From Actinomycetota bacterium (lineage in GTDB: Bacteria; Actinomycetota; Thermoleophilia; RBG-16-64-13), in the NCBI GenBank assembly GCA_018830645.1, contig JAHJSA010000067.1, positions 10,919 through 74,918 on the forward strand: a DNA stretch of 64,000 bases. The letters run 5' to 3'. Both the position numbers and the translations under genes were made by a program. Below, piece by piece: positions 33 to 13,380 of the stretch. Within the stretch, counting starts at the first letter, position 1. The number at the start of each line of letters is the position of its first letter. Under the pieces are notes generated by a model. The model saw nothing but the letters and a program-made list of their open reading frames with translations, was not told where the DNA came from and searched no databases.

Positions 33-1805
33 TCATCGGCTGTTTCTAAATGCCTCCATCCGTTGGATAAGATCGCGAAGGTCTTCCGGGACGTTTGCTG
101 CGGTGTGAGCGTCGACTAGTGCCCTTTCCGAGAGGTTCACACTGTACAGTTCGCGGACCGTGGACCTGAGCGCAGCGAGCACGGTCTTGCCCGGCACGAC
201 GGTCATACGCTGATCGATGTCTCCCCAAAGACGCTCAATACGATCGGCCACCTGTTGATAGACCGTGGCTTGATCGACTCCAGAAGATCGTAGGAACTCG
301 GCTCTCCTCGCGGCGTACTGGGAAGTGACACTCGTGCGCAGGTTGTCTGAGACAGCATCCAGCAATTCTTCTGCCGGTCGCAACTCTGGCATTGCATGTC
401 CGTCCCGTCTGCATCGGTCGCGTACGACTCGTTCAAGCGCCCGTTGAACGACAAATGGTGAGAGCAAATAGTTCTCGATTTCTTTTCTTGCGTGGACGTG
501 AACGAGCGGAATATGCTGGCTCAGGCTCTGGACCATGGCTTCTATTTGCTCGTCGGGAAAGAAGTCTCTGTCGTAGACAACGGCAATCCGCAGAGGGCTT
601 CCCAGCGTGCGCTCGATTCCCCAGCCGACTGAGCCTATGCGCTCCCATGAACCAAAGCCCTCCGAGCGTAGCGGCGTGAGCCCGCTGCCGGTCGCAAGTT
701 CGGGAAATCCCAGCACTTTGGCAAACCGTCGGATAATCGCGAAGTCCGTGTCGTTTTCAACAAAGACCACCCGTCGATCTCTGGCGAGGCGGGTGAGCGC
801 GATGTTGTGCGCGGATCCGACAACATCAAGTGCCTGTTGAACTCCTGCCGCGTCGGCAAGCCGCTTTGCCGAGTGTGCTGCCTTGTCGATGAGCAGGATC
901 TCGGACGGGTCAGCCTCGGCTATTACTTCGGCTGAGTGTGTGGCCAGCAAGACATCTGGCCACGCCTCGCCAAGCACGTCCAAGAGCTGGCGCTGCACAT
1001 CCGGGTGTAGGTAGATCTCGGGTTCGTCGACGACGATCAGGGTGTCGTTCTTTGATCGCGCGATGTGAGTAAGCAGCTGGCACCAGATCTGGAACCCAAA
1101 GCCTGACCAGAAGAGCTCCCGAGATATCCTGTTCTCGAGGCAGAACATTGAGATCTTTCGGGCGAGGTAGTCTGGCCTTTCGGGCGGCAGGATGTCCATG
1201 TCGGGCCACGTCTTGCGCACCAAGTCCGCAAATTCATCAAAACCCTCGCCGAAGTAGTGCCAGTAGGATCTGAAGTGCCTGGACGCACGGTGGGTCGACA
1301 GTTCACGGCGGACGGTCTCCTCCTGAACGAGGTCCTCATCGTGCTCAACAGGTCCGAGGACAGGCACGACGGCAACAGAGACCGGGAAAGCGGCGCGGAA
1401 TTGCGACGGAGTACGAGGAACGTGGCCAGGAGTCTCCGGGAGCAGGAATACGCCTCTGTCACGCGGGAACAGCAGCCTGAGGGCGTTGCCGTTGGAAAGG
1501 TGGAACAGGACGTACGTATCTTCCTCTGAGTAGTCTGTGTGGACGTTCTCGAGGGAAATTGGGATGGCGTCTTCCGCCAGAATATGGCCGCGCCTCGCGC
1601 CTCCGCCCACAGTGACCAGGTCCGCACTGCGACTTGCTGCGCGGCGAAGCCCGACCGCCAGCGCTCGGAATGCTCCAATGACGGTGGACTTGCCGCAGTT
1701 GTTGGGCCCGACCATCACGTTCATCGCAGCCAGGCGCACCGAGAATGTCTGAAAAGCCTTGAAGTTCCGAAACTCAACCGACGTGAATCTCGTGGCTTCA
1801 GTCAC
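33..1805 (-). CDS. ABC/AAA-type ATPase fused to a C-terminal Toprim/DUF4435-like domain (OLD-family / PARIS AriA-AriB-like)
   Basis: 590-aa ORF with GTG start. Walker A GPNNCGKST, Walker B IVVDEPEIYLHP, THSAEV. The C-terminal third (VVFVENDTDF ... VVYDRDF ... KEIENYLL) resembles the acidic Toprim/DUF4435 motifs of OLD-family nucleases. Confidence 0.75.
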   Translation of the reverse strand: MTEATRFTSVEFRNFKAFQTFSVRLAAMNVMVGPNNCGKSTVIGAFRALAVGLRRAASRSADLVTVGGGARRGHILAEDAIPISLENVHTDYSEEDTYVLFHLSNGNALRLLFPRDRGVFLLPETPGHVPRTPSQFRAAFPVSVAVVPVLGPVEHDEDLVQEETVRRELSTHRASRHFRSYWHYFGEGFDEFADLVRKTWPDMDILPPERPDYLARKISMFCLENRISRELFWSGFGFQIWCQLLTHIARSKNDTLIVVDEPEIYLHPDVQRQLLDVLGEAWPDVLLATHSAEVIAEADPSEILLIDKAAHSAKRLADAAGVQQALDVVGSAHNIALTRLARDRRVVFVENDTDFAIIRRFAKVLGFPELATGSGLTPLRSEGFGSWERIGSVGWGIERTLGSPLRIAVVYDRDFFPDEQIEAMVQSLSQHIPLVHVHARKEIENYLLSPFVVQRALERVVRDRCRRDGHAMPELRPAEELLDAVSDNLRTSVTSQYAARRAEFLRSSGVDQATVYQQVADRIERLWGDIDQRMTVVPGKTVLAALRSTVRELYSVNLSERALVDAHTAANVPEDLRDLIQRMEAFRNSR

Positions 1806-1889
1806 CTGATCCGCCTCTCACTGTGCACTACCTGGGGGGTCGGTGCGATTGCCACCGGATGCGCTCTTGATACAATCACTTGACGTCCA

Positions 1890-4800
1890 TCATAGAGCGG
1901 TCTGGGTTGTCGAGAGTACTCGCGCAAGGCCTGTCAGTCGAGCCCCAGCGGCTAATTCGCGATCTACTCTCCAGAACCCCTTGGGCTCAAGACGCCGAGT
2001 GAACTCGTTTCGGCCCAGGTCGCCGACGACGTGATCGCAGTCCCTGAGGATCCACTCAAAGTCCTCGGTAGTCAGCGCGTAGCACTTGGCCACCTGCGCG
2101 TCGATGACTGCGCGCAACGCTCGCCGCTGCGCTACATCGACAACCCACAGGCCGTCTCCGGCCTGAGCAGAGTCGGCCGCCTCGTTCTCCTCGGCTCGCA
2201 TTCCCTCCCAGCACTCGCCGAAGCACGGATGCGCCATACACAACCTTGCTGCCGTAGTCCGAAGCAGCTGGGTCTCCGGGCTCGGCCGCGGCAGCGGAGT
2301 CTCCTCGATGACGAAGTAGTTGAGATGCAGTCCCCCGCAGCGCATCCGCGCCACGAAGTCGTAGACAAACGAGTTGAGAACGGCGACCAGCTCCAATGGC
2401 GAACGAGTGGTGGACAACACCGGCGCGGAGTTCCCGCACGGCACATCATTCAGCACCGCGGCGATCATGGTCCGCTCGTTGGTCGCCGACGTGATGTCCA
2501 TGAAGGCGACCTTCAACCCGCGGGCCATCTTCGGGTCGCCGTCGCGGTCCCGGGCGGCATTCTGGAGATAGTCCTTCTCCCCCATCAAATACTGCGGCTC
2601 AATCCGCTTATCCGACCAGGGAATATCCCGCCACACGGCACTACGCCCTTTGCCGCTCACCCAGCCCTTCTGCGAGAAGTCGAACTGCCCGATCATGCGC
2701 CCTTCGTACAGCGGCAGCGCCACGTCTTCGATGTCGTCGGCATGAATCCAGGCGACCACGGCGCCCCCACCGTAGCCGGCGGAAAGCGCTTCACCGACGG
2801 CATCCCGAGAAAGCGCGTCACCGATCCCACCCCCAGTGTCCGCGCCTCCCCCGGCTCCCGCGTGGCGCAACCCCGCCGCCGCGTCCACCGACAGCACCAC
2901 CCCCGGCTCCATCTCCCAACGCTCGCCCGGCGGGCGGCCCGGGCGCCAGCCACCCTTCAGCCAGCGGCCGTACTCGTCGGGGCGGTAGCCCTTGGCCTCC
3001 CACACCGGGCGTGGCGGGAAGAGCTTGGAGTCGTTGGTCATGTCGAACTCGCGCGCATACTTGATGCCCCAACCGTCGGGGCCGTCGTCGCCCAGGAGCA
3101 CCGAGTTGGCGTAGATCTTCTCCAGGATCTCCAGGTCGCGCTTCTCGCTCAACTCCAAGATCGCCCTCGTGCGGGGGCTGAAGCGCTCCACCTGCTCCCG
3201 GGCGTAGGGGATGGCGTGGGCCTCGGCGTTCTCCCAGTCGGCCAGGGAGCGGCGCATGAAGGCGGTGCGGATGGCCTCTGTGCGGCCGCCCTTCTCCACG
3301 ATGAGGGGCGCGAACTTGAAGCGGCTGTCGATGTCGAAGACCTTCTCGCGGTTCTCGAAGCCGAAGAGCCAGCGCCAACGGCAGTGCTCGAGAAAGAGGG
3401 TGCGCAGGTCGGTGGAGCCTTTGTCGGTGTAGACGCCCGAGGGGACGATCATGCCCAGCTGCCCGCCGCGCTCGAGGAGGGCGTGGGCCTGTTCCAGGAA
3501 CATCTTGTAGGTGTTGATGTCGGCGGAGCCTTGGTGTCGGAAGGGGTGCGCGGCGTCGGCGTAGCCCGTGCGGCCGCCGCGGCGGATGCGCCAGCTCTCG
3601 TGCTGGTCGGCGCTGCGTGTGCCCAGGTTGAACTTCCCGCCGCCATCCCGCCCGCCGCCGAAGGGCCGGCCGGCATGCTTGTTCCAGTTGGAGAGCGCCC
3701 GGAAGCGCGCGTTGTAGCGGAGCCACTCCTGCTCGACCGCGGCGTCGGCGGCGAAGTAGGCCTGCTGTTCCCGGAGAGCCTCCTGCTTGCCGTAGGTGCG
3801 GTAGAGGGGATCGACGTTGCTGAAGAACTCCTTGGAGCTCGGCTTTTGGATCTCCCACGGCGGGTTGCCCACCACTGCGTCGAAGCCGGCGCCGGGACGG
3901 TCGAAGACGTCGGGAAACTCGAGCTCCCAGTGGAAGAAGCGGTGCTCCTCGGCCAGGCGCTCGGCCAGGGCGGCGGTGTCGGGCGAGGGGTCGCGGAAGC
4001 TGAGGGGCGTGGGAGCCGTATCCAGCCGGTCGGCCGGCCAGAACCACGTGGCGCACCAGAGGTCGAAGGCCGCCTTCAGCCGTCGGTAGGCGTCGTTCTC
4101 GGCGATCTCCCGGCGGTAGAGTTCGGCCCGCTCCTCCACATCCTGCACGGGAAGCTCGTGGAGGTGGCGCAGGTCGGCGACCGCGTCGTCGTGCAGGGTT
4201 TCGGCGCTTGATCCCTCGGCGAAGAGAGACTGCTGGCCGGTCACCTCCTCGGTGATCCAGCGGTGCAGCTCGGGCTTGATGCGGTTGGTGCGGAAGTCCT
4301 TGATAGCTTTGGTCCAGGCGCCCTTGGCCGGGTGGTGGACGCCCGTGGTGTGGCCGTCGTCGACGCCGTCGCGCTCCCAGGCCAGGGCCGGATAGTCGCG
4401 GAAGTGGTCGAACCAGCAGCCCACCAGGGAGTTCCCCAGCTTGAGCTTGTGATCGATGAAGCCGAAGGGCAGGGTGCGGTCCATGGTCTCCACCCACAAG
4501 GAGAGCCGGGCGAGCTCCACCGCCAGGGGATCGATGTCGACCCCATAGAGGCAGCGTTCCACCACGTAGCGCTTGAGGCGGGCGTGCAGCAGGGCGTCGA
4601 AGTTCTCGGCGTCGGGCGGCGCGGGCAGGGTGTCGGTGGCCAGGGAGCCGTCGCCCGCCTCGCCCGTGGCCAGTGTGACCAATGTGGCGTCGCCGTGGGC
4701 CTCGATGCGGCCGTAGTGGTGCAGGCTCTCCACCAGGGCGTCGGTGAGGAAGCGGAGCGAGGCCACCAAGAACGAGGCCGAGGCCCATGCCCAGGTCGCA

Positions 4801-6768
4801 GACCGTGAGGGCGAGGATGGCCTCCGGGGGCTTGGGCGTCCAGGCGGCGGGGGCAGCGTCCTCGAGGGCGGTGCCGTCGGGCGCGCGCGGCGGGTCGTAG
4901 GCCAGCGGGCGCAGGGTGCGGTGCACGGTGGGCACGGCCAGCTGAGGCCGGGTGTAGAAGGTGCCCGCCCCCTTGCGGGTGCCGCCCCAGCGCACGAGGA
5001 ACCACTCGCCGGGCAGGATTAGGCGGGCGATGAGGCCCCGGGCCGCGGCGTCGAGGGCGACCTCGTGGGCGGCGGTCGCGGCGGCGGCGCTGGCTCCTGT
5101 GGCGGCCTTCCTGCCCTTCTTGGCGGCGACCAACTTGCCGGCCACGGCGGCCCGGCGCGCCCAGGCGTGGGCGCGGGTGTGGGCTTCGTGGTAGAGGTCG
5201 TCCAGGGGTTCGTCGTCGGGCGGCTCGTCCGCGGCGACGGGGTCGGGCTCGAGCTCGGTGGCCGATTCCTCGGTTTCTTCCCCCTGGGCGGCGTCGGCCT
5301 CTTCCTCCGCGGCTTCCTCCTCCTCGACCGCCGGAGCGGAGCCGCTCTTCTGCTTGAACGCCTCCATCAGCCTACCCAGGCTCTTGTCGTCCATGGCCTC
5401 GAGACGCGACAGCGGCAGCGCGGGTTGATCGCCCAGGTTGAGGAAGAGCATGGGGTCGCCGGCCGCGGCGCGGCGCAGCTCGAAGTCGAGCAGGCCCTCA
5501 TACAGGATGCCGATGTACTCCGAGGAGAGGTCGGAGAAGTCGACCGGCGTCTCCACGTAGGTGGCGCCCCGGCCCTGGCGTACGCGCACGCGGCTGCGGG
5601 TGAGCAGGTCGAGGATGCGGCGGACGGTGGCGTCGCTTGGACCGTGCTCGGGGGATTCGAAGGCGACGAGGGCCCGAAGCACCGCATCCTTGGCTTGGGA
5701 GTTCCCCGGACGAAAGAGCCCACCGCCGTAGCGGGTCACGGCCAGCTGAGGATGGGCCGAACCGTCGTGTATCAGGCGGAACAGGGCCAGGATGCGCGGC
5801 CAGGCGGAGGAGTGGTGGCGCAGGCGTTCCTCGGAGGCGCCGCCGCCGGCCCGTTCGAGGGATTCGCGCAGACCCTGTAGGCCGTAGGAGCCGTGGTAGA
5901 GGGGGTTGTCCCGGGGGAGAAGGTCGCGGGCTTCGGCGAACAGCACCACCACCAGGCGCATGACCACCCGGGTGGCGGCGATGTAGATCTCGGCGGGGGT
6001 CACCGTCTCGTCGAGGGAGTCGAGGGCTCCGCGATGCTCCTGGATCAGCAGCTCCACGGCCCGGCGGACGCGCTCCCCGAGAGCGGCCGAAAGCTCCGCC
6101 TGACCCTGGCGGGTGGCCTGGATGGCGGCCAGAAGGGGCGGCTGGGGGCCATCCGAGAGCGGGGTGAGCGCCGGAGGCCCCAGCAGGAGGCGGAGGGCGG
6201 TCACCTGCGGCCCGGGCACGCCTTCTTCAAACCAGAGGTCGGTGTCCCACTCGGCAAAGGCGTCGGTGTCGAGGCCGGCGTGCACCAAGCGCCACTGGCG
6301 CCCGTTGGTGAGCAAGGCCAGGTGCCAATCGCGCTTTCGCAGCCACTCGATGACGCGTGTGTGACTCCGCCGTCCACGGCCCAGCCCGATGCGGCTCACG
6401 TCGGCATCGACGAAGACGGGCAGCACGAACCCCTCGGGGCCGCGCCACACCCGGCGGGGTTTGACCGTCTCCCCGGAGAGGGCCCGCTCCGACCACTCGG
6501 GGCCGACCTCCGCGCCCTTGACCCAGCGACCGGCGCCGTTGCCGCCCAGCCCGAGCACTTCCTCCAGAACGGTGTCGAGCAGCACCGCCAGCGCATCGCC
6601 GTTAGCCTCGGCGGCACGGATGACGTCGCGGCGCAGCTTGTCGGCCACGTACGGGGCAAGGGGCATGACGCTCTCGGGAAAGAACTGAGCCAGCCGGGAG
6701 GGAGCAATCAGCAGACCGCCGTGGTTCAGGGCGGCCCACCAGGCGTACTCGGCCGCCGCCGGGCTCAC
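1890..6768 (-). pseudogene. Giant (~1,620-codon) gamma-class N6-adenine DNA methyltransferase (type IIG / DrmMI / PglX-like), split by one frameshift in motif I
   Basis: ORF 2818-6768 is protein-like only to ...TVCDLGMG, then turns into Arg/Pro junk. ORF 1890-4769 in another frame continues SASFLVASLRFLTDAL and carries YGVDIDPLAVELARLSLW and motif IV VVGNPPWE. Joined, the two give one protein with GTG start at 6768. Confidence 0.8.
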
Positions 6769-6812
6769 GCCGCGCCCCTGTCGATGGACGCCGCCGGACT
6801 CACGCCGCGCCC
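6755..6812. repeat. 35-bp-period tandem duplication of the helicase-stop / methylase-start junction
   Basis: gccgccgggctcacgccgcgccc (6755-6777) and gccgccggactcacgccgcgccc (6790-6812) match at 22 of 23 positions. One copy carries the methylase GTG start, the other the helicase TGA stop. Confidence 0.8.
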
Positions 6813-9800
6813 TCCGGCAGCCAGACTTCTACCGCGATGGGGAACACCTGGGCTTCCCCCCGGAGCGCGTAGCGCTTGGGCAGGATGTGCGTGAGCACCC
6901 GGTCGCGCTCCGTGCGGAGCTGGTGCTGCAGCTCATCCAAGTGCCGGCGACGGCGATCGATCTCCTCCTGCTTCTCCTTGGCCGAACGCTCCAGATCGGC
7001 CAGCCGCTCTTCGTTGTCGAACAGCGTGCCCCGTAACTGGTCCTGGCGCAGCTGCGCGATCTCGCGTTCCAGCCGGGCGAAGGTCTGCTCCTGGATGAGC
7101 CGCGACACCTCTCCCTGACGGCTGCGGTAGCGTTCCTCCTCGCGCCCGCGCTCGGTCTCGTATTCGGCGGCGACGGCGGCCTGCAGCTCTTCGGTGAGGC
7201 GGGCGGCCTCTTCCTTCAAGAATGCTGCTACTTCAGGCTCTATGTCGATCCAGAGGTCGCGGGCCACGGCCACGCCGTCGAGGGCAACCTCTCCCGGCAT
7301 CTGCAGATCGTGGGCCGGTAGGTGGGGCAGGCGGGGGCCGAGGCTTCCGCCGGAGATCGGCAGTGTCACGGTGCGCACCCAGTGGTGGAAGGTCTCTCGC
7401 AGTTCGTTGACCGCCAGCTCTTCGAGCGTGAGGAGTAGAAGGGCGTCGGTTCCGTCGGGCACCCAACCGCGGCGCACGGTCCAGCGGCTTGCCTCGTGCT
7501 GGCTTCCGGGGAAGCGCACCCGAGCGAAGGTGGCCAGCGCCCGCCGGAAGAGTGGGTGCCCCACGTGCAGCAGCACCGTATCCCGGCGGGGGCGGAAGAC
7601 AGGCCTCCCGCCCACGTCGTCGACGAAGCCCTGCGGATCGAACAGGAGCTTCCGTAGAGCCCCCTTGGCCCCGGCGCCGTTGCCATCGCCGCCCAGGCGG
7701 AGTGTGTCGTCGATGAGATCCGCCCACTGCTGTGGGAACGGCGGCGAGAGCCGGTAGCGGCCGTCGGCGTCGGGGCCGTCGAGGCGGCCGGTGACGCCTC
7801 CACCACCCATGCCGAGGGCGACTTCGAGGGTGGCCTTGAGGCAGCTTGGTTCGAGATCCAGTTCCGCGGCCAGCGCCTGCATCTTGGCGGCCTCTTCGCT
7901 TCCCAGGTCGATGCGGGTGTCACCTTCGACGGTGGCGCGACCTTCGACCTGATCGAGAGCCGTCTCGAGCTCTTCGCGCACCTGATTCTCGTCCTCGTCC
8001 TCGACGAACCGGCGCTGGAACGCGGCGTCGAACACCTCGCCCGCCGACCCGAGGTCCTCGCGGATGTCGTTCACCTTGCCCAGCACGTAGCCCAGGAAGC
8101 GGAGGTCGACGTCGTCCTTCGTGGTGAAATGGTAGACGAATACGTCCCGGGCCTGTCCGTGGCGGTCGAGGCGGCCGTTCCGCTGCTCGAGGCGGGCGGG
8201 GTTCCAGGGGATGTCCCAGTGGAGCAGGTAGCGGGCGGTCTCCTGAAGGTTCAGACCTTCGGAGGCGGCGTCGGTGGCCACCAGGATGCGCACCGGGTCG
8301 GCGGGATCGTTGAAGGCGGCTTTGATCTCCTCGCGCACCGGGTCGGTCATGCCGCCGAAGAGCACGCGGATGCGGTTGGCGGCGGCGGCGGCGGTGGGCG
8401 CGGCGGTTCCGGCGCCGGCAGGCGGCGCCCCGGCGGAGGGCGGCCCGGCGGGCGACGCGGCTGTCGCGGCGCCCCTGGCGGCCGTGGCAGCGCCCAGGTA
8501 GCGCTCCCGCAGGCGGCGCTCCAGGTAGTCGAGCGTGGTCTTGTACTCGGTGAAGATGACGAGCCGCTCGTCGTCTCGCCACTCGCCGGCAGCGGTGCGC
8601 AGATGCTCGTCGATCCAGCGGACGAGGGCATCGAAACGCGAGTCGGCTGCGGGCATCCACCCGGCGGGCTGTGGGGTGGATGCAACCTGGTCACGGTTCG
8701 GGCGCAGGCCGAGCCGCTCGAGGGCGCGGTCCAGATCGGCGATCTCGTCGTCGATGTCCGCTGCCAACGGGATGAGCCACGCTCCCACCATGCGGGCGGC
8801 GTGGGCGGTGCGGCCCTCGTTCTCACGGTCGTCGCCCGTCTCTTCGCGGTAGGCCTTCTCCGCGGCTCGGATCTCGGCGTCCGACGCCCGCTCTTCCTGC
8901 TGCAGGCCTTCCATGTATCGGTCCCACGACTCGGCGAACGCCACCGGGCACGAGAGCAGACGCTTGCCCAACACCTCTACCGCAAACGCCCCGGCCAGCC
9001 GCTCGCTCTTGCTGCGGGCGGAGACCAGCGAGCGCACCCTCTTCCGGAACTCCTGGAACGCGGCCGAGAGCATCTGCTCCTTCGGGTCGAGGTCGAGGGG
9101 GATCGCTTTGACCGTCCGCTCGCCGAAGCGGGGAGGGCTGGTGTGGGCGTTCACCTCTCGCTTGAGCCGTCGCACGAGAACGTCCTGCACTCGGGCACGC
9201 TCGTTCGGCGTGAGCTCACCGGTCTGGGTAAAGCGCACCGGGTCGAGGCTCTGGAGCAGGCCGGTGAAGCTGCGCGTGTGGCCGTTGTGGGGCGTGGCCG
9301 TGAGGAAGAGCTTGTGCTCGAAATACGGTGCGAGGTTGCGGAGCATGGCGGCCAGATCGCTGTCTTCGCCGTAGGCGGCCGGTGAGAGGTTGTGGGCTTC
9401 GTCGACGATGAGCAGATCCCAGGGCAGGTGGGGCGAGTCGTCCTGCATGCGCGAAGCCGCTCGGAACGACTCGAAGACGTCGGCCTGCTTGAGGTAGTGA
9501 TACGAGGTGATCACGCGCCCGTAGGTGCGCCAGGGATTGGCGTCGAGGCCGAGCTGCCGCTGCAGGGCGTGGGTCTCGGCCCGGTCGACCACGTCGAAGG
9601 GCAGGGAGAACTTCTCCTGCATCTCGCTTTTCCACTGCAGTCGCAGCGACGCCGGGCAGATGATGAGCACCCGCCGGATGCGTCGCCGGATGAGCAACTC
9701 GGTCAGGATGAGCCCAGCCTCGATGGTCTTGCCCAGGCCCACGTCGTCGGCCAGGAGCAGCGAGACGCGCGGCATGCGCAGGGCTTTCAGCAGCGGCACG

Positions 9801-10216
9801 AGCTGGAAGTCTTCCACTTGGATGGCGGCGTGGAAGGGGGCCGAGAACGGGAGGCGGTCGAGGGGACCGGCTTCGCCGTCGGGATCGATGAAAGGCGTCA
9901 CGGCCGACCAGCGCGTGGCGCGCACGAGGGCGTCGAACTCGTGGGGCACCATGGGCCCGGCCCCGAGCACGTCCGGGGGGCTCGTGGGTTCGAGCAGGCG
10001 GGCGCCGGGCTCCCGCTCCCACACCAGGTGATCCTCGAGGGCCTGGCCGTCGGCGTCCAGATACTCGACGGTGGTGAGGTGGAGCCGGCCCTCCGGGCCG
10101 GCGTCGAAGGGCTCGACAGCGGCCACCATCCCGCGGCGGTTGCGCACGGTGGCCAGCATGCCGACTCGGGGGATGGGTGGTGCGGTGGTCGGGCCGGGTG
10201 GGCGGTCGGGACTCAT
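6800..10216 (-). CDS. SNF2-family helicase (DrmD-like) with a long C-terminal extension
   Basis: 1138 aa. Motifs DDVGLGKTIEAG, LIVDEAHNL, LTATPHNG, VATDAASEGLNLQ, WNPARLEQRNGRLDRHGQ. Contains an Ala/Pro-rich insert and ends in a charged coiled-coil-like tail. Confidence 0.85.
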   Translation of the reverse strand: MSPDRPPGPTTAPPIPRVGMLATVRNRRGMVAAVEPFDAGPEGRLHLTTVEYLDADGQALEDHLVWEREPGARLLEPTSPPDVLGAGPMVPHEFDALVRATRWSAVTPFIDPDGEAGPLDRLPFSAPFHAAIQVEDFQLVPLLKALRMPRVSLLLADDVGLGKTIEAGLILTELLIRRRIRRVLIICPASLRLQWKSEMQEKFSLPFDVVDRAETHALQRQLGLDANPWRTYGRVITSYHYLKQADVFESFRAASRMQDDSPHLPWDLLIVDEAHNLSPAAYGEDSDLAAMLRNLAPYFEHKLFLTATPHNGHTRSFTGLLQSLDPVRFTQTGELTPNERARVQDVLVRRLKREVNAHTSPPRFGERTVKAIPLDLDPKEQMLSAAFQEFRKRVRSLVSARSKSERLAGAFAVEVLGKRLLSCPVAFAESWDRYMEGLQQEERASDAEIRAAEKAYREETGDDRENEGRTAHAARMVGAWLIPLAADIDDEIADLDRALERLGLRPNRDQVASTPQPAGWMPAADSRFDALVRWIDEHLRTAAGEWRDDERLVIFTEYKTTLDYLERRLRERYLGAATAARGAATAASPAGPPSAGAPPAGAGTAAPTAAAAANRIRVLFGGMTDPVREEIKAAFNDPADPVRILVATDAASEGLNLQETARYLLHWDIPWNPARLEQRNGRLDRHGQARDVFVYHFTTKDDVDLRFLGYVLGKVNDIREDLGSAGEVFDAAFQRRFVEDEDENQVREELETALDQVEGRATVEGDTRIDLGSEEAAKMQALAAELDLEPSCLKATLEVALGMGGGGVTGRLDGPDADGRYRLSPPFPQQWADLIDDTLRLGGDGNGAGAKGALRKLLFDPQGFVDDVGGRPVFRPRRDTVLLHVGHPLFRRALATFARVRFPGSQHEASRWTVRRGWVPDGTDALLLLTLEELAVNELRETFHHWVRTVTLPISGGSLGPRLPHLPAHDLQMPGEVALDGVAVARDLWIDIEPEVAAFLKEEAARLTEELQAAVAAEYETERGREEERYRSRQGEVSRLIQEQTFARLEREIAQLRQDQLRGTLFDNEERLADLERSAKEKQEEIDRRRRHLDELQHQLRTERDRVLTHILPKRYALRGEAQVFPIAVEVWLPEGAA

Positions 10217-10641: not shown

Positions 10642-11109
10642 GTGCGGGAAATGGGACCTTTGGCCTGTAACGAATTGGAGCAGTTCATCGAACCGGAAGA
10701 GCCCGGCACCCCGGAGAACGAGGAAGTGCTTGAGTTGGCCCGGTTCCTAGCCCTACCTGGGCGACCGCGGTCGGCCTTCCTTGTGAGCGCCGAAGGCGCG
10801 CGGCTCACGCTGCCCGTTCGCGTTTTCGATATTCTGGCGCGGGTGGTCGAGGAAATGGCGCGGGGCAACGTGGTATCCATCGTTCCTGTGCATCACGAAT
10901 TGACCACCCAGGAGGCTGCCGACCTGTTGAATGTGTCGCGACCCCACGTGGTGAAACTGCTGGAGAACGGCGAGATCCCATTCCACTTGGTGGGCACTCA
11001 CCGCCGGGTCCGTTTCGACGACGTGATGGCGTATCGTGAGAAACGGACTGCAAAGCGGCGGACTGCGTTCCGCGAACTCGCCGCGGAGAATGCGAAGCTG
11101 GGACTCTGA
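10642..11109 (+). CDS. Excisionase/MerR-type HTH DNA-binding protein, putative antitoxin of the downstream PIN gene
   Basis: LTTQEAADLLNVSRPHVVKLLENGEIPFHLVGTHRRVRFDDVMAY is a typical excisionase-family HTH. An alternative ATG start lies at 10651. The PIN gene follows 31 nt downstream. Confidence 0.65.
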   Translation: MREMGPLACNELEQFIEPEEPGTPENEEVLELARFLALPGRPRSAFLVSAEGARLTLPVRVFDILARVVEEMARGNVVSIVPVHHELTTQEAADLLNVSRPHVVKLLENGEIPFHLVGTHRRVRFDDVMAYREKRTAKRRTAFRELAAENAKLGL

Positions 11110-11140: not shown

Positions 11141-11731
11141 GTGGCTTTCTCCGCCCTCCTCGATGCCTGTGTGCTCTATCCGGTAGACCTGCGTGATCTC
11201 CTTCTTCGTTTGGCTGAGAAGGGGCTCTTTCGAGTTCTATGGACAGACGAGATCCTGGAAGAGATGCGGCGGAATATCGTGCAGAACCACCCGGGCCTTG
11301 TCCCCCAGCGGCTCGACAGAACCATCGATTTGATGAACCAAGCCTTCGAGGATGCGATCGTAGCGGACTACCACGGGCTTGTCGACGCAATGACCAATCA
11401 TGTCGACGACCGGCATGTTCTAGCCGCGGCCGTTCGAGGGCGGGCGGACGTTATTGTGACAGAGAACCTCAAACACTTCCCGTCAGAAGCCTGCGATCGG
11501 TATGGGATCGACGTCCAGTCGGTGGACGAGTTTCTTCTCTATGCATTTCACCTTGCACCCGGGACGGTCGTGCTCGCAATGAACGAGCAGGTGCAAGATA
11601 ACCGAAGGCCGCTTCAGACGCTCCGTGACTTGCTGGTCCGAGTCGAGCGTGTTGCCCCTGAGTTTGCACAGGCCGCCCAAGAATATGTGGGCCGGGTGTC
11701 CGGTGAGAACAACGAGCTTGGTGAAGTCTAA
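11141..11731 (+). CDS. PIN-domain protein, putative toxin
   Basis: 196 aa. N-terminal LLDACVLYP and C-terminal DRHVLAAAVRGRADVIVTENLKHF are typical acidic PIN motifs. Confidence 0.65.
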   Translation: MAFSALLDACVLYPVDLRDLLLRLAEKGLFRVLWTDEILEEMRRNIVQNHPGLVPQRLDRTIDLMNQAFEDAIVADYHGLVDAMTNHVDDRHVLAAAVRGRADVIVTENLKHFPSEACDRYGIDVQSVDEFLLYAFHLAPGTVVLAMNEQVQDNRRPLQTLRDLLVRVERVAPEFAQAAQEYVGRVSGENNELGEV

Positions 11732-11804: not shown

Positions 11805-12110
11805 ATGGAACAGATGACGCTGGACCCGATCCATCCCGGAGTGATCCTTCTGGAAGAGTTCCTTGAACCCTTCGGCATCAGTCAGTATCGACTCGCCAAG
11901 AGCATCAGCGTGCCTCCGCGGCGCATCAACGAGATCGTGCACGGCAAGCGGTCGATCACGGCCGACACCGCGCTTCGTCTGGCGAGGTTCTTCGGCACCA
12001 GCGAGAGGTTCTGGTTGAACCTCCAGGTCAGGTACGACCTCGAGGTGGAGAAGGGCCGTCTCTCCGGTGTGCTGGAGCGCGACGTTTTGGTGTACCGGGC
12101 TGCCGTGTAG
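11805..12110 (+). CDS. higA: HigA-family XRE-type HTH antitoxin
   Basis: PIHPGVILLEEFLEPFGISQYRLAKSISVPPRRINEIVHGKRSITADTALRLARFFGTSERFWLNLQ is the canonical HigA/VapI sequence. Confidence 0.8.
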   Translation: MEQMTLDPIHPGVILLEEFLEPFGISQYRLAKSISVPPRRINEIVHGKRSITADTALRLARFFGTSERFWLNLQVRYDLEVEKGRLSGVLERDVLVYRAAV

Positions 12111-12231: not shown

Positions 12232-13380
12232 ATGGTGCGGCGGGACTACTGGATCGATCGGATCGAACGGGCGTGGCAACGTCGGAGCGTCGTCTGGCTC
12301 CACGGTGTCCGCCGGGTCGGCAAGACCACACTCTGCCGGTCTCTGGACGGCGTCGAGTACTTCGATTGCGATCTGCTGTCTGTCCGCGAGCGGCTGCGCG
12401 ATCCGGAGTCCTTTTGGTCTGACCAGCGGGGACGTCGCGTCGTGCTCGACGAGATCCATCACGCGCCCGACCCCTCACTCGTGCTGAAGACCGCAGCCGA
12501 CCACTTCCCCGAAACTCGAGTCATAGCCACTGGGTCTTCGACATTGGCCGCGACGGCGAAGTTCTCGGATTCCCTCACCGGCCGGAAGACCGACATCTGG
12601 CTGACGCCGATGGTGTCGGAGGATCTTGCCGCCTTCGGGGGCACCCTGGACCGACGACTGTGGCAAGGTGGACTGCCCCCGTTCTACCTGGGCGAACCGG
12701 ACGAGATCGGCGCGGATTTCTTCGAGTGGGTCAGCTCGTATTGGGCGCGTGACGTGCAGGAGCTGTTCCGCATCCAGCAGCGCCCGGCCTTCGTGCGGTT
12801 CGTCGAGCTCGTCTTGGCCAGGAGTGGAGGCATGTTCGAAGCAACCGCTTTCGCCGAGGTGTGTGAGGTGAGCCGCACTACCATCCAGAACTACCTTGAG
12901 GTACTGCAGGTGACGGGCGTTGCGTCGGTCTTGCGGCCGTTCTCCTCGCGCCGAACGACGGAGATCGTCTCGGCTCCCAAGGTCTACGGGTTCGACACGG
13001 GGTTCGTCCGGCACGCGAGCGGATGGAGAGACCCTCGGCCTGAGGACTGGGGCACCTTGTGGGAACACTACGTCCTGAATGAGATCCAGGCGCATTGTCC
13101 CGATGTCGAGCTGAAGTACTGGCGCCAGAAGCGCGGGCCTGAAGTCGATTTCGTGCTTGAGCGTCGCGGGCTTCCGCCCATGGCCATTGAGTGCAAGTGG
13201 CGTTCGTCGTCGGCCAGAGATCTACCCGGTCTGCGGGCGTTCAGGGCTCACTACCCGGAAGGCGAGGACCTCGTGGTGTGTTCGGACCTCGAAGGTGGGC
13301 AAACCCGCCGATTGGGCGAGAGATCGATCACGCTCGTGGGTGTGCGGGGTCTGCTCGATGCCCTGAGAAGAGCCGGCTGA
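12232..13380 (+). CDS. AAA ATPase with DUF4143-like C-terminal domain
   Basis: 382 aa. Walker A GVRRVGKTT and Walker B VVLDEIH. The C-terminal half resembles the DUF4143/restriction-endonuclease-like fold family. Confidence 0.7.
   Translation: MVRRDYWIDRIERAWQRRSVVWLHGVRRVGKTTLCRSLDGVEYFDCDLLSVRERLRDPESFWSDQRGRRVVLDEIHHAPDPSLVLKTAADHFPETRVIATGSSTLAATAKFSDSLTGRKTDIWLTPMVSEDLAAFGGTLDRRLWQGGLPPFYLGEPDEIGADFFEWVSSYWARDVQELFRIQQRPAFVRFVELVLARSGGMFEATAFAEVCEVSRTTIQNYLEVLQVTGVASVLRPFSSRRTTEIVSAPKVYGFDTGFVRHASGWRDPRPEDWGTLWEHYVLNEIQAHCPDVELKYWRQKRGPEVDFVLERRGLPPMAIECKWRSSSARDLPGLRAFRAHYPEGEDLVVCSDLEGGQTRRLGERSITLVGVRGLLDALRRAG

Follow-up and report, generated by a model that had tools for sequence, protein, structure and literature searches.

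The window analysed here, a 64-kb stretch of contig JAHJSA010000067.1 from an Actinomycetota bacterium, begins with three co-directional genes on the minus strand, which encode an SNF2 helicase (6800-10216, 1138 amino acids), a giant N6-adenine methylase (1890-6768), and a predicted OLD-family ABC-ATPase/Toprim nuclease (33-1805, 590 amino acids). The three genes probably represent two modules, namely a helicase-methylase pair of the ARMADA/class 1 DISARM type without its YprA-family partner, and an autonomous OLD-family cassette. Rather than a new three-gene system, the locus is an unusual form of systems already described; a self-contained system, one of the two readings offered by the first-pass annotation, was not supported, as the trio was not found beyond L010, a syntenic close relative of the window locus.

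The gene order, strand, and spacers of 31 nt (6769-6799) and 84 nt (1806-1889) read in that annotation agreed with the coordinates of the open reading frames (ORFs). The window belongs to L001, a 75-kb ENA metagenome contig that supplied 10 kb of left flank, and three other assemblies from different samples were 100% identical to the window locus over 2-8 kb; one of these, L002, covers the methylase frame break described below. The operon had been thought to run off position 1; however, the OLD gene stops at position 33 and the contig continues leftwards.

To describe the gene context of the methylase, one genome per GTDB species was scanned; of at least 147 relatives, the best 80 (43-63% identity) were screened by tblastn, a sample that included no close actinobacterial relative (>63% identity). 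The family comprises proteins of ~1,650-1,800 amino acids with more than 50% identity in many phyla, and one near relative is labelled Candidatus Nanopelagicales. A DrmD-like helicase was encoded directly upstream of the methylase in all 74 loci with upstream DNA. Of the 60 loci with sufficient flank, 53 encoded a YprA/DruE-like (ArmC-like) helicase of ~1,800 amino acids downstream; this protein contained DEAD, Helicase_C, and MZB (formerly DUF1998) domains, and its best PADLOC matches were the Druantia DruE models. The OLD family of the window was found in none of the 80 methylase loci.

The reciprocal comparison gave the same result. The OLD family occurred as a stand-alone gene in annotated contexts of Paenibacillus, Sorangium, and other genomes, and also in unrelated defence neighbourhoods. 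Neither the methylase nor the helicase was present in any of the 32 metagenome OLD loci whose upstream DNA extends for at least 1 kb, and this methylase preceded OLD in only one of ~39 OLD contexts, the sole case being L010. The neighbours of OLD differed in every context examined, and no conserved helicase, reverse transcriptase, or AriB partner gene was found. Co-localisation of the three families in other genomes had been named as the check on the trio, and the trio failed it on both sides; there is no general co-occurrence of OLD and the methylase.

The closest relatives of the window locus also differ in what follows the methylase. In L010 and L013, the helicase-methylase pair shares 89-91% nucleotide identity with that of the window. 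The region 3' of the methylase contains OLD followed by ThiF, E2, and ubiquitin-like (Ubl) genes in the window, a different OLD allele followed by a Pbe system (PbeA/PbeC) in L010, DUF7255 and Hachiman in L013, and DUF5343, AbiE, and Mrr in the more distant L181 (64% relative). Between L010 and the window, nucleotide identity was 91% over the helicase-methylase pair and 96% in the far flank, and fell to 68% in the OLD gene (66% at the protein level), where synonymous sites were saturated. The OLD gene has a GC content of 0.588 and a GC content at third codon positions (GC3) of 0.67, compared with a genome GC of 0.66 and a GC3 of 0.88-0.91 in the pair. This low GC marks OLD as a separately acquired cassette, which appears from the sequence comparison to have been swapped between close relatives.

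The pair itself has apparently persisted in this sub-lineage without its usual partner. A tblastn search with the L014 protein detected no ArmC-like sequence in the 64-kb window or in the 10 kb to its left, the gene/Pfam table of L001 contained no protein with DEAD and MZB domains, and an ArmC-like gene was absent also from the L010, L013, and L181 loci. We infer that the rest of the genome does not encode ArmC either. In addition, a C-terminal tail of ~100 amino acids (GEGWMLPETLRLADYGLGHD...RFLPWQLE..EESW.ECE.HA in the alignment of loci L015-L094) was conserved in the methylase of 52 of the 53 ArmC-positive loci, was missing in the window, L010, L013, and L181, and was missing or degenerate in most ArmC-less loci. 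Judged from this distribution, the tail may be a region of interaction with ArmC. Against L010 and L013, the helicase had a ratio of nonsynonymous to synonymous substitution (dN/dS) of 0.17-0.20 and the methylase one of 0.09-0.25 (at dS 0.24-0.43); therefore, the pair is under purifying selection without ArmC in the sub-lineage of the window.

The third gene is, according to its sequence motifs and structural model, an OLD-family ATPase/Toprim nuclease. On the minus strand, its motifs comprise Walker A GPNNCGKST (1683-1709), Walker B VVDEPE (1002-1034), the Toprim glutamate (VVFVEND, 750-770), DxD (YDRDF, 558-581), and RKEIENYLL (462-488). In an alignment of 20 family sequences, Walker A GPNNxGKST, Walker B DEPE, Toprim FVE, DRD, and RKExEN were invariant, including residues G38-K39-S40, D260-E261, E350, D412, D414, and R440-K441-E442. 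Pfam assigned AAA_15/AAA_21 to the gene, and its PADLOC matches to AriAB, Old, and GajA were weak at ~70 bits (~1e-20); the top match was AriAB with 72 bits over part of the profile, GajA models reached at most 63 bits, and HEC-01A ~54 bits. The family profile matched the PDB entries of PtuA, GajA, and OLD 6p74, the last of them across the ATPase-Toprim boundary. The AlphaFold2 (AF2) model had a predicted local distance difference test score (pLDDT) of 82.8, and its top fold match was the Thermus scotoductus OLD protein 6p74 (E 9.8e-13, 523 columns), with GajA, PtuA, and the retron Eco8 OLD ranking next; no AriA or AriB chain was among the 50 fold matches listed. Of the earlier description as an ABC-type ATPase fused to a Toprim/DUF4435-like domain, the ATPase and Toprim parts were borne out, but Pfam DUF4435 gave no match. 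The comparison with PARIS/OLD effectors also held, as the gene is placed with OLD/PARIS/Gabija-type ATPase/Toprim proteins by the PADLOC, profile, and fold matches.

The OLD family yielded ~2,000 matches of ~590 amino acids at 50-66% identity, ranging from Paenibacillus to Sorangium and Acidobacteriota. Conservation over the full ~590 amino acids across such distant phyla is unusual, and the only name given by NCBI is 'ATP-dependent nuclease'. No experimental work on this subfamily was found in the literature. The tblastn search of 50,697 phage genomes returned no match, IMG/VR contained only two matches of at least 30% identity and one weaker match, and plasmids gave only two matches (41% identity), both from Cupriavidus megaplasmids/chromids.

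The helicase (minus strand) contains the Pfam domains SNF2-rel_dom and Helicase_C, as expected from its first description, with a Walker A sequence DDVGLGKT at 9725-9748 and a DEAH sequence LIVDEAHN at 9389-9412. It is of the DrmD/ArmA (BrxHII-like) type: it scored 702.6 bits with the NCBIfam equivalog DISARM_DrmD (NF038317), passing the cutoff of 610, and 689 bits (3.8e-207) with PADLOC DrmD, a much higher score than that of its secondary match to HmaA (2.3e-61). A low-complexity insert rich in Ala, Pro, and Gly (AATAARGAATAASPAGPPSAGAPPAGAGTAAPTAAAAAN) lies between the two RecA-like lobes at residues ~573-612 (window 8380-8500). Between the helicase stop and the methylase start, a 35-nt tandem duplication (6751-6812, minus strand; repeat family D5) consists of two 27-nt copies with 93% identity. 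As a result, a 12-codon mini-ORF (MSPAASIDRGAA) is left, flanked by two GTGA stop/start overlaps, and an ancestral 4-nt GTGA overlap would have become the present 31-nt spacer. The duplication is common to the window, L010, and L013, whereas the cyanobacterial L014 has a simple ATGA overlap.

The methylase had been read as one frame of ~1,620 codons; it is in fact split by an extra base into two ORFs (2818-6768 and 1890-4769) that lie in different frames and overlap. Joining them requires the removal of one C of the CC at 4782-4783 (extra base at 4782, minus strand) and gives a protein of 1625 amino acids. The N-terminal part in frame A (residues 1-662; 4783-6768, minus strand) is predicted to contain a domain with a restriction-endonuclease-like fold, a helical region, an acidic linker, and the first half of the S-adenosylmethionine (SAM)-binding motif I; the C-terminal part in frame B (1890-4781, minus strand) contains the second half and the target-recognition and C-terminal regions. 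The frame break thus falls within motif I (4764-4803), between VCDLGMG (4783-4803) and SASFLV (4764-4781). Motif IV, VVGNPPWE (NPPW), is located at 3852-3875 on the minus strand. Both motifs had been read correctly, and Eco57I was the only Pfam match. The best PADLOC model was REase_MTase_IIG (PDLC03622, 1364 bits), followed by DrmMI (PDLC02643, 456 bits), and no NCBIfam model scored above its cutoff. The DrmD/DrmMI type read in the first-pass annotation was supported for the helicase by the DISARM_DrmD cutoff, and the methylase may be of the DrmMI type according to its second-ranking model.

The relatives read through the site of the frame break (L010, ATGGGCTCGGCC; L013, ATGGGGTCGGCC), where the window has ATGGGCCTCGGCC. 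Across the junction, the frame-corrected methylase is 92% identical to the intact 1643-amino-acid protein of L010. The insertion was present in both L001 and L002 (SRR6514730), and absent from L010 and L013. Since L002 is an independent assembly with the identical insertion, the insertion is a real allele, and a sequencing or assembly error was rejected as its cause. Programmed frameshifting was judged unlikely, as no slippery motif was evident at GGGCCUCGG by inspection. The dN/dS values of the helicase-methylase pair indicate that the frameshift in the window is recent. The methylase of the window is broken by this 1-nt insertion, and the helicase-methylase module is most likely inactive in this strain.

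In summary, Module A would consist of a DrmD/ArmA-like SNF2 helicase and a DrmMI/ArmB-like N6-adenine methylase of the class 1 DISARM/ARMADA kind, whose sub-lineage (window, L010, L013, and L181) appears to have lost ArmC and the methylase tail while the pair remained under selection, and which the frameshift in motif I has presumably disabled in this strain. Module B would be an autonomous OLD-family ATP-dependent Toprim nuclease in the slot directly after the methylase, where embedded genes are found. OLD, Gabija, and PARIS suggest by analogy that it most likely works on its own, as an ATP-gated DNA nuclease that infection cues trigger. Its position beside the methylase would reflect the insertion and exchange of cassettes at a hotspot for defence genes and not an obligate three-gene mechanism.

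Several observations weigh against this division into two modules. Since the sample of 80 loci included no close actinobacterial relative, the association between OLD and the methylase could be commoner in the clade of the window than the counts show. ArmC could be encoded elsewhere in the incomplete genomes, and a pair that is kept by purifying selection without ArmC requires an effector of some kind. In L010, the start of OLD overlaps the stop of the methylase by 4 nt, in place of the 84-nt spacer of the window, and such an overlap suggests co-translation. Moreover, the last ~130 codons of the window methylase (1890-2282, minus strand) belong with the OLD gene to one block of lower GC and high divergence (GC3 0.62-0.70 for the block). 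In these codons, GC3 is 0.70 compared with 0.88-0.91 in the rest of the gene, dS is 1.17 compared with 0.24 upstream, and blastn identity breaks. A block of low GC3 and high dS that spans the methylase end and OLD points to recombination with donors in which a methylase-OLD junction was already present; the occurrence of two OLD alleles with 66% amino acid identity after near-identical methylases, in a block that includes the methylase end, argues for the same. The adjacency therefore has a longer or more repeated history than one chance event. A search for donors with the C-terminal 168 amino acids of the methylase in a set of 5.8 billion proteins returned nine short fragments (37-51% identity) and was uninformative, and tblastn of the C-terminal part against plasmids found distant methylases only (27-30%).

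Of the 53 ArmC-positive loci, 33 have additional genes in the slot that separates the methylase from ArmC, and AAA_21 and AAA_15 were the commonest Pfam domains among 79 ORFs of this gap. PADLOC naming, which covered six ATPase-bearing cassettes of the slot, identified Old in L031 (directly after the methylase and followed by ArmC), HEC-01A/B in L051, HEC-02 in L050, HEC-03 in L081 and L083, and AbiL in L079. ABC-ATPase cassettes thus recur in the slot after this methylase family, and they are also the commonest embedded family in Payne et al. (bioRxiv 10.1101/2024.01.29.577857). A related arrangement was observed on the metagenome contig L172 (1633-14450), which encodes full-length DrmD (1011 bits) and DrmMI (1229 bits). 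DrmMI is followed, with a 4-nt overlap, by a 621-amino-acid AriAB/NsnB/Old-like ATPase, then by a 489-amino-acid protein that could not be assigned and by HEC-01A/B, so that two ABC-ATPase cassettes are stacked 3' of drmMI before the contig ends.

Such recurrence is what would be expected if OLD, although mechanistically autonomous, guarded the modification module as a second line that is triggered when phage anti-restriction proteins, such as DNA mimics, disable it. Precedents are the triggering of PARIS by Ocr and of PrrC by Stp (10.1101/2024.01.29.577857), and the ABC-ATPase/Toprim-type cassettes found 3' of the methylase family and after the bona fide DrmD-DrmMI pair of L172 are in line with it. 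However, this OLD subfamily has no known trigger, most of its members lie away from any modification system, and embedding may merely reflect tolerated insertion sites and co-transfer. We consider a guard role rather unlikely.

An integrated three-gene system, in which OLD replaced YprA/ArmC as the effector so that the methylase marks self, the helicase scans, and OLD cuts unmodified DNA, would account for the purifying selection on a pair without ArmC, for the loss in this clade of the tail that accompanies ArmC elsewhere, and for the presence of OLD after the methylase in two haplotypes with deeply diverged alleles, one of them with the 4-nt overlap. On the other hand, the same pair occurs without OLD in L013 (DUF7255 and Hachiman) and L181 (DUF5343, AbiE, and Mrr), ~38 of 39 contexts of the OLD family show a stand-alone gene, L031 carries an Old gene in the same slot alongside ArmC, and the GC content of OLD marks its separate acquisition. 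This explanation is accordingly held to be unlikely. A further reading is more novel and equally unlikely: the tail-less, ArmC-less pair would be a distinct two-gene modification module that has dispensed with the YprA helicase and has an interchangeable downstream nuclease, a 'plug-in effector' kind of DISARM/ARMADA-type immunity in which OLD would be gated or guarded by the pair. The interchangeable effectors may then be OLD in the window and L010, and Hachiman, Mrr, or AbiE in the relatives.

The pair might alternatively be a self-sufficient restriction-modification (RM) system of the type IIG or type ISP-like kind, in which the N-terminal endonuclease-fold domain of the methylase cuts, the SNF2 helicase translocates, and OLD is unrelated. 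The persistence of the pair without ArmC and the top rank of the REase_MTase_IIG model are consistent with this. The AF2 model of the N-terminal 653 amino acids (pLDDT 77.8) had the type IIL enzyme DrdV (7lo5) as its top PDB match, and it also matched PD-(D/E)xK folds weakly. The match to DrdV was itself weak, however (E 2.5e-3, template modelling score 0.16), and comparison of the N-terminal domain across the family revealed no invariant D...(D/E)xK motif and a variable acidic position after the PVFV strand, so that nuclease activity cannot be claimed for the methylase. The related ArmB and PglX methylases are, in addition, described as non-nuclease. This possibility is considered improbable.

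A canonical class 1 DISARM with drmA, drmB, and drmC just outside the window, which the DrmD and DrmMI matches might have suggested, is hardly credible and was refuted by the content of the left flank, since the 10 kb to the left of position 1 carry opposite-strand ThiF, E2, and Ubl genes in place of any DUF1998/MZB, DrmA, or PLD gene, and none of drmABC lies within 54 kb rightwards.

The preferred reading of a YprA-less pair with an adjoining autonomous OLD cassette has several implications. ARMADA and class 1 DISARM are thought to need a YprA-family helicase, and a pair-only sub-lineage under purifying selection raises the question of whether the ArmC-less pair functions independently or relies on effectors encoded nearby. 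With this locus the 'embedded defence gene' pattern gains another clear case, and attention is drawn to a large, strongly conserved OLD subfamily across phyla. The interest of the locus lies in the YprA-less helicase-methylase sub-lineage and in this OLD subfamily.

The trio lies at one edge of a defence island on the chromosome of a high-GC, probably actinobacterial organism, as indicated by the defence-type genes nearby and by the housekeeping genes (glyoxalase, methylmalonyl-CoA mutase, sucCD, and others) that begin at ~15.3 kb and continue rightwards. To the right of the helicase are genes encoding HTH_17 (10642-11109), PIN_3 (11141-11731), and HTH_3 (11805-12110) proteins, followed in the same island by an AAA_14 and DUF4143 ATPase (12232-13380) that matched the PADLOC phage-defence candidate PDC-S01 with 188 bits. 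To the left of the OLD gene on L001, the opposite strand carries ThiF, Prok-E2_E, and Multi_ubiq genes, and beyond them an ECF sigma factor gene and hypothetical genes. The ThiF (E1), Prok-E2_E, and Multi_ubiq genes form an operon (L001 12215-14291) directly beyond the OLD gene, which resembles the bacterial cassettes for ubiquitin-like conjugation that have been linked to phage defence; its PADLOC E1-E2 matches were weak. No tRNA genes marking the borders of the island were found. A minus-strand scan of the 1806-1889 spacer with sigma-70, E. coli-centred consensus sequences, which is uninformative here, detected no promoter or terminator.

A further gene pair was observed near the helicase-methylase pair in two unrelated loci, the actinobacterial relative L013 (14998-19806) and the Nodosilinea cyanobacterium L093 (15583-20561). 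It encodes a fusion of a protein kinase and an SF1 helicase (AAA_11/AAA_12) of ~1,150 amino acids together with a PLD-domain protein of ~500 amino acids, and is a possible two-gene defence module.

Among the known systems, class 1 DISARM (drmD, drmMI, drmA, drmB, and drmC) shares with the window the helicase-then-methylase order, the DrmD family membership of the helicase, and the DrmMI match of the methylase. It differs in its core genes: neither the gene/Pfam table nor tblastn revealed drmA/B/C or any DUF1998/MZB, DrmA-like, or PLD gene in the 64 kb of the window or the adjoining 10 kb on the left. The absence of DUF1998 (drmB), drmA, and PLD (drmC) genes noticed in the first-pass annotation thus holds for the window, and the leftward extension that it named as a check showed that the locus is not a canonical class 1 DISARM. 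The 456 bits of the window methylase with DrmMI also contrast with its score on the type IIG model and with the 1229 bits of the true DrmMI of L172.

Hma (HmaA helicase, HmaB methylase, and HmaC ATPase), which had been proposed as a candidate architecture, has the same order of helicase, methylase, and ATPase, and the helicase has its secondary match to HmaA. However, the helicase fits DrmD better, and no HmaB model was among the 25 PADLOC matches of the window methylase. Hma was rejected because HmaB is a 5-methylcytosine (m5C) methylase (PMC8565338), whereas the enzyme here is of the N6-adenine NPPW/Eco57I type. A match to DrmD and DrmMI beside an OLD-like gene should therefore not be annotated as DISARM, Hma, or a new three-gene system.

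With the OLD family (P2 Old in class 1, the Thermus/Burkholderia proteins in class 2, GajA, and the retron Eco8 effector), the third gene shares the fusion of an ABC ATPase to Toprim in ~590 amino acids, the Walker A/B, Toprim E, DxD, and RKExEN residues, and a best fold match to 6p74. As a single gene that usually has no fixed partner it resembles class 1 in gene context. The weak PADLOC scores, the near-absence from phage and IMG/VR sets, and the lack of a UvrD/GajB partner set it apart; Gabija in particular differs in that no UvrD-like GajB gene adjoins the window OLD and GajA matches are low. From these sequence features, the window OLD appears to represent a distinct, uncharacterised, and highly conserved subfamily. 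Like the embedded genes of Hma, BREX, and DISARM operons or those of type I RM (10.1101/2024.01.29.577857), it is an ABC-ATPase/Toprim gene directly after the methylase of a modification system. It differs from the embedded HEC/PDC genes in that the window lacks a distal ArmC, which makes OLD terminal and not strictly embedded, and in that it does not correspond to a named HEC model.

For the helicase-methylase pair, the closest described system is ARMADA, which comprises a YprA-like helicase, a BrxHII-like SNF2 helicase, and a PglX-like methylase, is sister to Druantia on the YprA tree, and is abundant in Actinomycetota; in ARMADA type II, deletion of any gene abolishes defence (bioRxiv 10.1101/2025.09.15.676423). 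The window locus departs from it in having neither ArmC nor ArmD anywhere in 75 kb, in its frameshifted methylase without the conserved C-terminal tail, and in the OLD gene that occupies the downstream slot. The relatives are assigned to ARMADA by their gene content. In common with ARMADA, the window has a giant N6-adenine methylase of the Eco57I/PglX-like kind directly after an SNF2 (BrxHII/DrmD-like) helicase. This methylase has homologues (43-63% identity) in helicase-methylase-YprA/DruE-like operons in 53 of the 60 informative genomes, and the motif spacing is similar, with the NPPW asparagine at N968 in the window methylase and at N971 in E. coli ArmB.

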